Assembly: GCF_006345805.1 (NCBI RefSeq)
Contig: NC_043013.1
Coordinates: 16,740,001-16,804,000 of the forward strand
Direction of reading: 5' to 3'
Origin: Octopus sinensis
Taxonomy: Eukaryota
DNA length: 64,000 nt
Position 1 is the stretch's first letter; each line of letters starts with the position of its first letter. The translations under genes and the position numbers were made by a program. The notes under the pieces were generated by a model, which did not search any database, was not told the origin of the DNA, and was given only the letters and a program-made list of their open reading frames with translations. Positions 3,131-62,120 of this stretch are shown piece by piece.

Positions 3131-4678
3131 TAGGGAGTATAATTCCAAACTTACAGGGAAAAAATTCAATTTAGTATTAAATCAAATTTCACAATATAAA
3201 TATATAAAATATAAATTAGAGAAAAAAACACTATTATGCAATTCAAATAATGATAGACATAAACCAAATCATAAATAAAAAATAAAATGTTTTTATAAAA
3301 CATGTAACTAGATCACACAAAGTATAAAAATGAATAATCAATATATAATATGTAAAAAAATCTACGTACGTTTCATGGCTATAATTAAATTCGAATTACA
3401 ATTAATTTTAATTTAATCGAAAATCAATTCAATTTAAAATTATAGTCACTCTTCAGGTTAACAATAATAGTTAAATAAATAAGCAAATAGAGTTAAACAA
3501 TATTTATTTAAGAAATAAAATAATGATTTTTCTTATAGAAGAAACTCCATTAACTAAATTTGAAACTTAAAACATTAGGATCAGTTTCTTACAATACATT
3601 TATTATGTTAAATATTTAAGGTAAAAGAAAATAGAGTAAACAGATAAAAAAATGTGTTTATCTGTTAAGATATAATTTAGCTTAATAAAAAACATTAATA
3701 AACTATAGAATATCTTTAACCTAGTTATACTCTAATATTTAATTACCAAACTATTTTAAAAAACAATCACTCTTAATATTTTTAGATTTTAGTTCGCATA
3801 TAATAATTATAAAATAATAAATATATAAAAATAAGTATCTAAATTATTATCAACAAATATAGTAATTAAAAATCTATATTTTTTTCTATCAATAAACATA
3901 TAATAAATGAGTTCATTATTACTTACATAAATATTATAGATATCTTTCGAAAATATTTATGAAATAAAAAATAAGAATTGAAAAATTCAAAAGTAAAAAC
4001 GTATAACTTATCTTTATAAAATACTTATTATTACTATTATTATTAAATGAAATAGTACTAGAAATATAATAAGAAACTTATAGTTAAATTAAAACATTTA
4101 TACGATCTAGAGCCCAAAGTGACTAATTAATATTTTAAAATTTACGTTCAGATATAATAATTATAAAATAATAATAATTAAATAAATGTACATATCTAAA
4201 TTATCATTAACGAATAAAAAATTATAAATTCATATTTAACAATCAATACTTATATAGAGTACAATAATATTTCTTAAATAAAAAAAAAGCTTATTTATCT
4301 CTCCAAAAGGCGTATTATTAACTAAAAAATTTCAAAACGAAAAACGTCTATAAATTACTCGTAGAGTGACTATAATTTTAAATTGAATTGATTATCTATT
4401 AAATTTAAATTCAATTGTAATTCGAATTTAATTATAGCCATGAAACGTACGTAGTTTTTTTTTTACTTATATATTGATTATTCATTTTTATACTTTTTGT
4501 GATCTAGTTATATGTTTTATAAAAATACATTTTATTTTTTATTTATGATTTGGTTTATGTCTATCATTATTTGAATTGCATAATTGTGGTTTTTTTCTCT
4601 AATTTATATTTTATATATTTATATTGTGAAATTTAATTTAATACTAAATTGATTTTTTTCCCTGAAAGTTTAGAGCTA
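3131..4678. mobile_element. Penelope-like element remnant with inverted terminal repeats
   Basis: About 3131-3453 is the reverse complement of about 4363-4678. Internal duplication of about 3775-4010 at about 4130-4350. Flanked by (AAT)n/(ATT)n. Carries a hammerhead. Confidence 0.75.
3359..3460 (-). ncRNA. type I hammerhead ribozyme motif, long stem II
   Basis: Minus strand: aac CTGAAGA gtgactataat...attatagccat GAAAC gtac GTA gat. Stem III ACGTACGT is palindromic. Confidence 0.75.
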
Positions 4679-4724
4679 TTATTATTATCATTATTATTAT
4701 TACACACACACACATATATATATA

Positions 4725-5500
4725 GTAGTAACAGAAAAGAGGAATTTCGATTATCCCCACGTGGTGAGTTGTAATGTATATAAAAAATTAAAAAAGGAAA
4801 ATACGCACACTTACATAGTTTTAATATAATTTTTAATATATCGACCGGTTTTGCTATCGCTATTCATGATATTTTGTTTTACTTATTTGAATATATATTT
4901 TTTCTTAAGAAGAAATTTGGTCTATGTTGTGTGTGATGAAATTCACGAGTGAATAACTTCACAAGTAGATAAATAAAGGGTGGTAATTGTTGTCGCTATT
5001 ATTGTTATTGTTATGGGTAGGGGAGATAACTGTTCAGCTTTCGGTAATGGGTGGGGATTATATATGTGTGCAGACAGAGACAAGTTTCAAAGACCTTGTT
5101 TAGTAGGGGATTTATGTACAGTGATGTAATCGTGAATTGAAATATGTAAAACGATAAAAGCTGGTTATGCGTGCATATTAAGACGTGTTTTGTATTTTTC
5201 AATGAAAAAAGTTTCTTTATTTAAACGTTCTAGTTGAGAGATTGCATCTTTGCACTGGTAGAAAGGGAAGACTGAAATTTGGTTTGATGTTACCTGCACA
5301 TTTTTCTATATGTTCACTGAGAGGAATTTGTCTGTATTGCAAGAAACGGATTTGCTCTTTATGTAGAGTGGTTCTCTTTCTCAAGGTCATACTCGTTTGT
5401 CCAATATAGTGGTGTCCGCAACCCGAGTAGGTTATTACATAAATTAGGTTCTCAGTAGCACAAGTGAAGCTAGTTTTAATTGTGAACCTCTGTCCTTGTG
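4725..5500 (-). mobile_element. Penelope-like retroelement 3' fragment (GIY-YIG endonuclease plus pLTR)
   Basis: GIY-YIG peptide followed by a 3' non-coding segment with a decayed hammerhead (4838-4873). Ends at (TA)n. Confidence 0.8.
5217..5500 (-). pseudogene. GIY-YIG endonuclease remnant of a Penelope-like (Neptune-type) element
   Basis: FTCATENLIYVITYSGCGHHYIGQTSMTLRKRTTLHKEQIR...PLSEHIEKC gives the LIY...YIG motif with R..H. Truncated upstream by (GATA)n. Confidence 0.85.
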
Positions 5501-8269
5501 AACATATAGATAGGTAGATAGACAGACAGACAGACAAAGAGACAGACAGATAGATAGATATACATAGACAGATCGATATAGCTGCATAACTATAGATGTG
5601 TACCTCATCCGACTTTGTTGCCTCATAGCTTTCAGAAAAAGGGATACTTTTTAACGAAATTTTCAACAAATACCGATTAGATGCTGTGGATGCAGAGTAA
5701 GTAGGGATTTAGGGGAAATAATTTTTTCGAGAGGGTGAGGAGAGGAGTTTTGGAAAATTCACACGATCCGACTTTTTTTCAGGAAAATGAATAGCTTTTA
5801 ATGAAATTCTATACAAATACCTTTCAAACGGCATAGATTATGATTATCTTTCCTTTCTCACTGTCGAATGTATTGATGACAATTTCAGCGTGTAAGATAT
5901 TTACCACTGATAAACCTTGACCAAGTTTTGTTAGTGAAGAGGTCGCGGTTTCAAAGCGACGAAAATATTTTGATACAAATGGAATTTAAATGAAGTGAAA
6001 CTAACGGTTTTTGTGTGTTTACAAATATCTTCCACGCTGCAATTGTTTTTGTTTCAACTCATGATCTCAGATCAAGTCACCTGCTATAGAAGTACATCTC
6101 CGTAATGAATTGATGATTTTCAATACATACATGCAGGCGTGAAAATGGAGAGTAGTTTGGGATGCGCTAGAAACAACAGCCAAATCTCCTTTGAGTCGTA
6201 CTCTTTTTCCGCTGAAAATATTTACAACTATATAAAAAAATTTTTTTTACCGTAAAGGCTCCTCCTAAGGGCGTTACTTCTTTCAGTAAGTTATCGCAGT
6301 TGTTTGCAAATAGTGAATTAAGACTTGAAATGAAAACATTCAAAGAGAAAGTGAGGAAATTTGCAAATGAAAACGAACAATTCTCCATTGCTACGTTCAT
6401 ACCGGAAGTTGATATTGCAAAACCTTTTGAAAGAAGTGAATCATATATACAAAGCAATATTATGAATTTTTAAGAAAAAAAAAACTGAATGCCCCATTAT
6501 TTTTCCAGAATGAAAGCATTTACACATGCCAGGTATGAAGGCAATTCGCGCAACCGTTTTGGCGTGAAAAGTGAATACACACACACACACACACACACAT
6601 ACACACACACACACACACACACACACACACACACACACACACAATTCTATTTTATAATATAGATTACAAAAACAGTTTAAGCCTAGTTCAGTATAACTGA
6701 GTACATTACTCAGACAAATTTGACAGGTCGTACTCATAGAATTTAAATGGTTTCTTGAAACAAAAATTATATAAGAATTTAATTATTTCGCACGTTCGGA
6801 TGACCTCTACTCAAGTCTCACTGCTACTCAACTGTTCTCTGACGACAAGAAAAGAGAGAACAAAGAGTTCAAAATACAAGGAGGAAATGGAGTATGGTAT
6901 TAAGTGACCTACCCAAAGAATGTAGAAACAGAGAAGAAGATAGTCAGGTTTAATCAAATAGTAAGTGTGAAAGTACCATCATAAGTATATGTTGAGGATA
7001 TGAAGGGGATAGTGATCGAAGAGGAAAACTACACGAGACTGTATGAAATGTGTGGAGATAATATTGACCCACCAGGAGTGAGGGTGGAATTCAAAGAATT
7101 GCCACCAGCAGTGGATTTAGTAGAAATTGAACCATTGATGAAGTACTACTAAAAAGAAAATAAGTATGTTAAATTGACAGGAAAAAATAGGAAAGAAAAA
7201 AGAAAAAGGAGAAAAAAAGTAAAAAAAAGAAAGAGTAAATTTTTTTTTGTTATGTTTAAAAAAATATTGAAAACTAGAAGAACAATTGTAGAGAATGTAT
7301 ATAACGGTTCAAATACTTGCAATGGTATGTAACACGATAATTAATTGTTTTGTAAGTACATGATAAAAATGGACTATAAAAAAAAAGATTAATAGTACTA
7401 CATGTGATGAGGGGCGCATGCAGCCATTCATAACCTCATTATTATTTAATAATCTCATTCATATTCGTTTTATGTATTGTCCCCTCTGTGGTGTCCTGTC
7501 TGTCCTTGTTTGTCCTCCTCTATTTCGGGCCCTCGTGTCTAATAAACAAACTAGACTTCTCTCCCTCTATATCTACGTATTGGGCTAGCCTACGTCATCG
7601 TCTGGGGGCGTCCACACAACATTAATATAAATATTTATTAAATAATTATCAATCATATGATTAATATTAAGTGAAAAACGAGTTAAAAATCTTAATGGGA
7701 AAACATTATGCCCATGGAAAAACATTTCTTGGCTTCTCCCGTGATTTAATTCGCAAGAAAAAATTCTCCGAACAAAAAACAAAAAAAAAACCGCTGTGTA
7801 CATGTACCAAAACTACGCTATAAAAATTTTGCTGTTGCCTATGCTGCACTTTATTTTTTGGCGAAACATTAGCACATTACCAATGTATATATCATATTCA
7901 TATCGGCGTAGAGTCAGCTCGCCAGCAAACCAATTCGCCATTATACAATTTATTACAACTGTTAAGTATATTATACATTCTTTTGAATATTTTAACAACG
8001 ATTGTAAAAATAGACACATATTATGTTAAATTTTAAAATTCAATTGTTTTCTGGTGGTCTCAAATTAAGCCGGGCGGTAATTTTCAAACGACTAGGCTGC
8101 GCCGCGGGGCGAAGCCTTAAGGGGAACATTGTATTTCGGAAGTGTATGTGTAAGTGAAATCTTTATGAAACTTTACTAATTAATTGCTGATGATTTGATA
8201 AGTGAATTTTGTATTATAACAACAAATTTATCACTTTATAATTATAAATTTCTTAAATTCTTTCTCTCC

Positions 8270-61336: not shown

Positions 61337-61565
61337 TCTTTATTACCCACAAGGGGCTAAACACAGAGGGGACAAACAAGGACAGACAAACGGATTAAGT
61401 CGATTACATCGACCCCAGTGCGTAACTGGTGCTTAATTTATCGACCCCGAAAGGATGAAAGGCAAAGTCGACCTCGGCGGAATTTGAACCCAGAATGTAA
61501 CGGCAGACGAAATACAGCTACGCATTTCGCCCGGCGTGCTAACGTTTCTGCCATATCACCACCTT
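61337..61565 (-). mobile_element. SINE family A, well-preserved copy
   Basis: Reverse complement of 487-720. Confidence 0.9.
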
Positions 61566-62079
61566 ATTTACAGTACACTCTGTAAATATGGGTTGGCATT
61601 AGGAAAGATGTCCAGTCGTAAAAACCATTCCAAAGCAGGCATTTGAGAACAACACAGCCCTCAGACTAGTTGGATTTCGTTGAACCGTCCACTCCATGAG
61701 AGCATGGAATATGGACGTTAAATGATGATGATGATGATGATGACGACGACGACGATGATGATGATGATGATGATGACGATGATGATATTCTTATTATCAT
61801 CATTGTTCTAACAATGAACATTTCGTATCATCTATTTTAATTTAGGTGTCGACGGTTAACATAAATCTAATGATTCTTCGACGAAATGTCAATCATAAAA
61901 TACCCGAATCCTCATCTCCCCAGAAAATACAAACATACAAATTTACTAACTTAATTGAACATTATTTAACCAAAAACATACCACCATAAATTCCCTCGAA
62001 CTCCAGTTTTTATTTGCTAATATACTATCAAATGGCTTTTAAGTGTCAGAACTTAACATCAATTTAATATAACAATATG

Positions 62080-62120
62080 CTTTGCTGAGGAGGGTTAATA
62101 ACATCGAAACATGTCTACAG
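62080..62120 (+). ncRNA. hammerhead motif with weak stem I
   Basis: ctttg CTGAGGA gggtt aat aacatc GAAAC at GTC tacag. Stem III ACATGT is palindromic. Confidence 0.55.

Follow-up and report, generated by a model that had tools for sequence, protein, structure and literature searches.

Hammerhead sites in the window

The window, i.e., the whole stretch of DNA analysed here, comprises 64,000 nucleotides (nt) of the Octopus sinensis genome (contig NC_043013.1, positions 16,740,001 to 16,804,000), is 36% GC and microsatellite-rich, and has 9,091 of its 64,000 bases masked by Tandem Repeats Finder (TRF). Found across it are 20 hammerhead ribozyme sites in approximately 15 insertions. These mostly decayed motifs very probably represent the 3' ends, that is, the pseudo-long terminal repeats (pLTRs), of many families of Penelope-like elements (PLEs), as derived from truncated insertions into octopus microsatellites. 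The sites, other than a truncated arm at 47363+, are listed here by lettered family where one is assigned, with 'host gene' referring to an EGF-like domain gene that is taken up further below.

3360..3459, minus strand: family A hammerhead; 75-nt stem II region, 8-nt palindromic stem III, 2 of 3 stem I pairs
4363..4456, plus strand: family A mirror arm; truncated within the core, retains the 3' strand completing stem I
4838..4872, minus strand: decayed hammerhead; 5-bp stem I, G12A at a CpG-type site; read by eye, single copy
11229..11264, plus strand: family C hammerhead, best copy; CUGUNGA (A6U) core; element continues to (TA)n at ~11360
11876..11918, minus strand: family B hammerhead, intact type I; stem I 4 bp, stem II 5 bp, GUA site
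11987..12029, plus strand: family B mirror-arm hammerhead, intact type I
12370..12465, plus strand: family A hammerhead; first stem I pair broken
21636..21711, minus strand: family D hammerhead, near intact; stem I with two G-U pairs, GUU site; left arm of fold-back 21588-21869
21743..21821, plus strand: family D mirror arm; decayed core
24449..24546, plus strand: family E hammerhead; G5A lesion, long AT-rich stem II
24946..24981, plus strand: family C copy, decayed; U at position 6
35458..35531, minus strand: family G hammerhead; 12-nt perfect palindromic stem III, stem II closing pair mismatched; host-gene intron 1, antisense
46801..46852, minus strand: family H hammerhead; G-G at first stem I pair, 7-nt duplication
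47300..47341, minus strand: family I hammerhead, decayed; left arm of fold-back 47266-47422, right arm cut within stem II
50186..50223, plus strand: hammerhead, intact; U3-A8 core, stem I 3 bp, stem II 4 bp, palindromic stem III, GUA site; intron 1, sense strand
58024..58059, minus strand: family C copy, decayed; U at position 6
59266..59330, minus strand: family K hammerhead, intact type I; stem I 5 bp, stem II 5 bp, GUA site
59423..59488, plus strand: family K mirror-arm hammerhead, intact type I
62080..62120, plus strand: family L hammerhead; palindromic stem III, GUC site, stem I mismatch, stem II bulge

Ten of these sites had been named in a first-pass annotation of the same DNA, and all ten are real, with offsets of at most 1-2 nt (3360, 11876, 11987, 12370, 21636, 35458, 46801, 59266, 59423 and 62080). 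A core of CUGANGA with GAAA and a UH site, i.e., C3U4G5A6N7G8A9, G12A13A14A15 and U16 H17, is present in 10 of 10. That their closing stems are intact, as had been claimed, holds for half, namely 11876-, 11987+, 21636-, 59266- and 59423+, with lesions found instead at 3360-, 12370+, 35458-, 46801- and 62080+. All three stems, with stem I open, can be traced in the former five and also at 50186+ and 11229+, and 6 of the ~20 sites combine a canonical or known core with all stems. The four cleanest motifs are the arms of just two palindromes (families B and K), and the ten named motifs correspond to 8 insertions because two pairs of them are mirror arms of palindromes. Where about nine decayed or variant motifs had been suggested in addition, 10 further sites are counted, including 47363+. 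The ten named motifs fall in seven sequence contexts, of which just six are unrelated, since a 3' tail is common to family A (3360, 12370) and family B (11876, 11987) at 78% identity.

Excess over chance was gauged on both strands using a strict type I hammerhead descriptor, requiring a stem I of at least 4 bp, with a loose descriptor run alongside. The strict descriptor returned 4 matches versus a mean of 0.04 (maximum 1) over 100 block dinucleotide shuffles, and the loose descriptor 7 versus a mean of 1.1 (maximum 5), also over 100. Motif density by the strict measure thus lies above that of dinucleotide-shuffled sequence, a comparison on which the first-pass annotation had staked its claim. 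A relaxed scorer, which was written post hoc with the sites already known, gave 15 matches at a score of at least 6 versus a mean of 1.3 (maximum 6) over 200 shuffles, and 0 in the reversed sequence. Those 15 consist of all ten named sites, family C at 11233+, and four matches at chance level (1173+, 5684+, 34884+ and 48833-); these four are dismissed as chance matches, as are 47978-, 54587+ and 38787+. From a half-motif at 31883+ no full hammerhead fold could be obtained.

Rfam misses these sites; its Hammerhead_1 model (RF00163) describes canonical, not minimal, motifs, scoring 10.8 bits at 11987 relative to a cut-off of 34 and giving no match at 59423. Over the window as a whole, no hammerhead is found among the 150 of 221 Rfam matches listed, which are microsatellite or hairpin matches to miRNA-type and similar models. 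If ~20 sites per 64 kb were typical, then on the order of 10^5 motifs would be expected over ~2.8 Gb (a genome size derived from PMC13282606), with a single window that was possibly flagged for its density being a weak basis for that number.

Fold-backs, microsatellite ends and predicted folding

Hammerheads also occur as outward-reading pairs. Five hammerhead-bearing fold-backs are seen (families A, B, D, I and K), with arms that are 86-99% identical. Those not already located above are as follows, along with a fold-back that carries a half-motif.

3131..4700: family A fold-back, putative PLE end; 329/347 identical including flanking repeats, 910-nt AT-rich spacer, arms end in (ATT)n/(CA)n
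11767..12117: family B snap-back palindrome; 6-nt loop, 179/181 identical, arms end in (TA)n
25296..26293: fold-back element F; 335-nt arms, (TA)n flanks; 3' half-motif only, without a convincing hammerhead fold
59113..59641: family K snap-back palindrome; 6-nt loop, 272/274 identical, (TA)n at both ends; host-gene intron 2

Family A is present too as a single, one-ended copy (12157-12609). In element F, a CUGUCGA-like stretch lies upstream of the half-motif and a separate CUGAAGA lies downstream, with no closed hammerhead fold.

What these copies share is how they end. A (TA)n or (ATT)n run lies within 330 nt downstream on the ribozyme strand at 18 of 22 sites, i.e., the 20 hammerhead sites plus both arms of element F, versus 22% of random positions, with the 330-nt threshold having been chosen post hoc and mirror arms not being independent. 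The hammerhead copies are dispersed repeats beside microsatellites, rather than the 'low-complexity DNA' that ordinary annotation had been supposed to call them. Families A, B and C, at 3131, 11711 and 11360, respectively, have a similar short end motif, TGTAA or TGTGA followed by TCCC, directly before the microsatellite, and ~150 nt of the tails of families A and B can be aligned although their ribozymes differ.

Of the 10 named sites, 9 have a self-complementary stem III with no more than one non-matching base (family A in an 8-nt register), the exception being 46801-. Folding predictions place the monomer in a minimum free energy structure other than the active one in 5 of the 5 sites for which both were computed, and stem III self-duplexes are predicted to be favourable. 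Monomer misfolding together with favourable stem III duplexes may be viewed as the expectation for dimer-type motifs, i.e., ones that would cleave as two paired copies. In read-through RNA of the fold-backs, however, the ribozyme bases are predicted to pair with the opposite arm at 44/44 positions in family B, 65/66 in family K and 65/76 in family D. Fold-back pairs therefore would not act as dimers, and the sense copy in intron 2 would be masked; paired motifs, in addition, cannot dimerise on one transcript because they lie on opposite strands. The idea of dimer cleavage, as raised in the first-pass annotation, consequently fits the stem III sequences but not the window's own pairs, which are on opposite strands and would be buried in long duplexes.

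A GIY-YIG fragment and the probable link to Penelope-like elements

One insertion adjoins protein-coding sequence.

5168..5501, minus strand: GIY-YIG C-terminal fragment, apparently of a Neptune-type PLE; 77% to P0001, E 4e-37; frameshifted; 5' end at an (AGAT)n run

Approximately 300 nt behind the stop of this fragment, on the same strand, is the decayed motif at 4838-4872 (-), which then is followed by (TA)n. The A3/U8 core of that motif is a possible Watson-Crick covariant of the C3-G8 pair, a candidate seen in a single copy. P0001 and other relatives of the fragment have the layout reverse transcriptase (RT), CxxxxCxxC, GIY-YIG, and it is from this motif order in relatives, rather than from a tree, that the fragment would be assigned to the Neptune clade. 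An origin from Naiad elements is ruled out, as the relatives carry their endonuclease C-terminally. Pattern matches at loci of a GIY-YIG relative numbered 392, with 0 confirmed.

A reading of the motifs as minimal type I hammerheads of the PLE kind, having a palindromic stem III, is supported, with one of them linked to a GIY-YIG fragment. Flanks in the window lead to endonuclease sequence at one place, and to no RT remnant by tblastn. Describing these elements as 'non-autonomous' is not borne out: the sole protein-linked site appears to derive by 5' truncation from a Neptune-type element with coding capacity, and the fold-backs correspond to what ordinary PLEs leave behind, namely inverted copies truncated at the 5' end (PMC8557442). 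That paper also describes (TA)n targeting, and octopus Naiads without canonical hammerheads.

Family C: a uridine at core position 6

Family C is present as 3 copies (11229+, 24946+ and 58024-), outside of the ten sites named initially, and has the core CUGUNGA, with U at position 6 in 3 of 3. Four contig sets, under organism labels A, B, C and D (not to be confused with the lettered families), were aligned to 11160-11358 at 80% likeness, resulting in 16,617, 12,327, 19,249 and 8,579 placed contigs, respectively, a depth which is not a copy number. No alternative base reaches 5% at position 6 in any of the four sets. N7, by contrast, is G in 21-37%, A in 25-30%, C in 14-17% and T in 21-35%. 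Position 17 is A in 58-79%, with A the sole listed alternative to the window's U and G below 5%. At 11264, the majority base (85-93%) completes a 4-bp stem I, versus T at 6-12%.

Among the 32 non-CpG positions of the 36-nt motif (11229-11264), variation reaches 5% at just N7, position 17 and that final base of stem I, and remaining variation is confined to two CpG pairs; G8 is invariant even with C at N7, which is a CpG context. Non-CpG polymorphism affects 1 of 28 constrained positions versus 10 of 42 flank positions (Fisher p=0.02). The chance that variable sites would land on N7 and 17 is ~0.002-0.012 depending on counting scheme, a calculation made post hoc. Such variation is what a hammerhead under constraint would show, and family C likely has been held to that form while spreading, probably as a slow ribozyme. 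Neither metagenome contigs nor viral contigs contain a match to the family C pattern. No report of a natural A6U core was found in a literature search of incomplete coverage, so the novelty of U6 is provisional.

Interpretation and alternatives

The reading of the motifs as PLE 3' ends draws upon what is observed: the motifs themselves and how far they exceed chance, the fold-backs, the endings in microsatellites, the one GIY-YIG link and the variation seen in family C. Given that reading, two motif copies in a full or tandem PLE transcript would pair via their palindromic stem III, thereby cleaving the RNA. In a target-primed step, the reverse transcriptase and GIY-YIG nuclease of the PLE would then copy this RNA into (TA)n or (ATT)n, beginning at the 3' end of the RNA, with copying usually halting 100-350 nt in, just beyond the ribozyme. 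An inverted second copy often would be added, giving rise to head-to-head fold-backs, which are predicted to be silent because their arms pair with each other, and inserted copies would thereafter decay neutrally. Cleavage, dimer formation and this mode of insertion are inferred from established PLE biology, and a PLE origin would extend to those families that lack a protein link.

Several points weigh against this. PLE protein adjoins only 1 of ~15 insertions, and does so with the most decayed motif, while RT is seen in relatives alone; no PLE RT remnant was found in the window either by tblastn or by Pfam on 189 open reading frames (ORFs), the latter search having also missed the GIY-YIG fragment. 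Among these ORFs Pfam yields a single match that passes the curated threshold, to Transposase_1, and none to a PLE domain. Of 13 sites, 12 have unremarkable z-scores for single-strand folding. No true compensatory stem changes were seen in window copies or in family C contigs, with the sole apparent compensatory pair, in family D, representing CpG decay on both strands. The few polymorphisms of family C could come from a few master copies, and contigs lose rare variants. Lastly, position 6 changes lower activity in tested hammerheads: an A6C core has low activity in Mg2+ (PMC3088659, PMC7151607), and activity is low also with single changes of the CUGA turn (PMC9901934).

The first alternative, somewhat short of even odds, is that these are short, truly non-autonomous elements, resembling short interspersed nuclear elements (SINEs) or retrozymes, that replicate as small RNAs with PLE enzymes supplied in trans. 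This, the view taken in the first-pass annotation, is most plausible for family C, which is abundant (3 copies per 64 kb and 8,579-19,249 contigs per run), has a contig depth that peaks on the ribozyme, and has no ORF adjoining any of its 3 window copies; retrozymes, furthermore, derive from PLE pLTRs according to bioRxiv 2026.07.22.740005. Retrozymes, however, require a head-to-tail hammerhead pair, of which there is none in the window, and family C contigs extend as loose ends 5' of 11160-11358, such that the element may be longer than this stretch. Deep 5' truncation of an autonomous PLE would, moreover, yield the same picture as would a non-autonomous element.

The second alternative concerns activity, and is that the A6U ribozyme of family C is dead or nearly so, having been kept as a fold for PLE protein or having hitch-hiked in a few master copies. 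This is possible, though the balance tilts against it. The low activities just cited for A6C and the CUGA turn would favour it, and a few master subfamilies could yield a few polymorphic sites. Yet the free sites in family C are N7 and 17, the two which a working core tolerates; position 17 lacks G at 5% or more, G8 stays invariant beside a C at N7, and the pattern is alike under four organism labels.

It is very unlikely that the palindromes are instead miniature inverted-repeat transposable elements (MITEs), or DNA transposons of the fold-back kind, that duplicate a TA target, the motifs then being incidental. Long inverted arms with TA flanks, along with mariner remnants in the window, are what would suggest this, but the arms are unequal in length, reach the centre, and each carry an outward-reading hammerhead, and the one-ended family A copy also argues against a MITE. 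That the motifs are chance matches or assembly artefacts is scarcely credible despite the lack of an Rfam hammerhead score and an expectation of ~1 loose match per window, since the strict set (4 versus 0.04) already refutes chance, mirror arms differ at scattered sites, and 11705-12600 shares words with runs of 10 studies (up to 0.41). No RNA data set is listed for 11705-12600, which carries no information on its expression.

With the motifs read as PLE ends, octopus provisionally is a new host of an already described phenomenon and the U6 family what is new in the collection; no report of octopus or other cephalopod PLE hammerheads was found in the literature, with coverage incomplete. A term search of the accessible text of a curated octopus repeat annotation (PMC13282606) gave 0 mentions of ribozyme or hammerhead, and hammerheads therefore may be of practical use in recognising as PLE ends those repeats that resemble SINEs or MITEs and are at present unclassified. 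A bolder proposition, which on balance is unlikely, is that octopuses carry a very abundant, short retroelement with a working U6 ribozyme, that is, a natural core that is invisible to CUGA-based searches. Were this true, together with the dozen other families, then octopus would be among the most ribozyme-rich of genomes, with on the order of 10^5 motifs at the window's density over ~2.8 Gb. Cephalopods are heavy A-to-I (adenosine-to-inosine) editors of RNA, and the fold-backs would supply long intronic double-stranded RNA to such an animal. Family C is in addition a natural test of a core position considered near-essential, one that bears on whether catalysis or structure maintains the hammerheads of PLEs, and if U6 cleaves, then a whole class has been missed by standard descriptors.

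Host gene and other repeats

The EGF-like domain gene is on the plus strand, with exons at 32542-32592 and 56743-56871 that are 94% and 98% identical, respectively, to an Octopus bimaculoides protein (P0011). These are the first two coding exons, the first intron being 24 kb, and motif sites from 35458 onward thus fall within introns 1 and 2.

Remnants of non-LTR retrotransposons (i.e., ones without long terminal repeats) are seen at 13820-14473 (-), 37771-38514 (+), 29140-29660 (+), 30200-30600 (+) and 47724-48576 (-), by eye RTE-like and REL-endonuclease-like, with weak zf-RVT matches. Mariner/Tc1 transposase remnants lie at 15350-15700, 43480-44310 and 52760-53850 (Transposase_1, E 3e-8, at 53013-53474). 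Two abundant SINE-like families without hammerheads occupy 486-726, 2147-2523, 9594-9988, 10506-10884, 39098-39598, 44683-45007, 56402-56594 and 61336-61565. A 31-bp minisatellite of ~21 copies (20423-21072) is followed by a 103-nt palindrome without a hammerhead (21075-21177), and a degenerate, satellite-like array of 30-40-bp units with strong strand skew spans 41470-43260.

Comparison with known systems

Hammerheads of PLE pLTRs have been described for other animals, the phenomenon dating from 2014 (PMC4209133, PMC8557442). A close likeness is to the minimal hammerheads of PMC4209133, which number ~2,000-9,000 per genome, have low activity even as dimers, and include opposite-strand pairs 100-700 bp apart as well as a U3-A8 core. 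Shared with the window are the CUGANGA(H) plus GAAA core, short stem I, palindromic stem III, an additional base that often follows A9, a multiplicity of families in one genome, present mainly as solo copies, opposite-strand pairs and the U3-A8 variant. Different are the longer stem II regions of families A, D and E (53-75 nt) and the window's higher density. The 56 representatives in Fig. S3 of that paper include no cephalopod and all 56 have A6, with U6 having been undetectable there because the searches fixed the core.

Neptune-clade, endonuclease-positive (EN+) PLEs (PMC8557442) match in having a C-terminal GIY-YIG with, in the relatives, an upstream CxxxxCxxC linker, and also in their (TA)n targets, inverted 5'-truncated copies and pLTR hammerhead; the window differs in retaining just a 110-amino-acid tail of the endonuclease. 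Non-LTR retrozymes (PMC7229834; bioRxiv 2026.07.22.740005) similarly are non-coding, carry a type I hammerhead and are PLE-related. They are, however, head-to-tail tandems with canonical loop-loop motifs, whereas the window's copies are minimal and either solo or head-to-head, with self-BLAST of the window revealing no head-to-tail hammerhead tandem units.

For family C, the nearest precedent is the A6C core of phage Bcep176 (PMC3088659, PMC7151607), in which position 6 likewise is changed with other core bases retained. There the change is in a single phage copy. In family C the base instead is U, within a eukaryotic, minimal type I motif, and it is fixed, under all four organism labels, in a repeat of high abundance.

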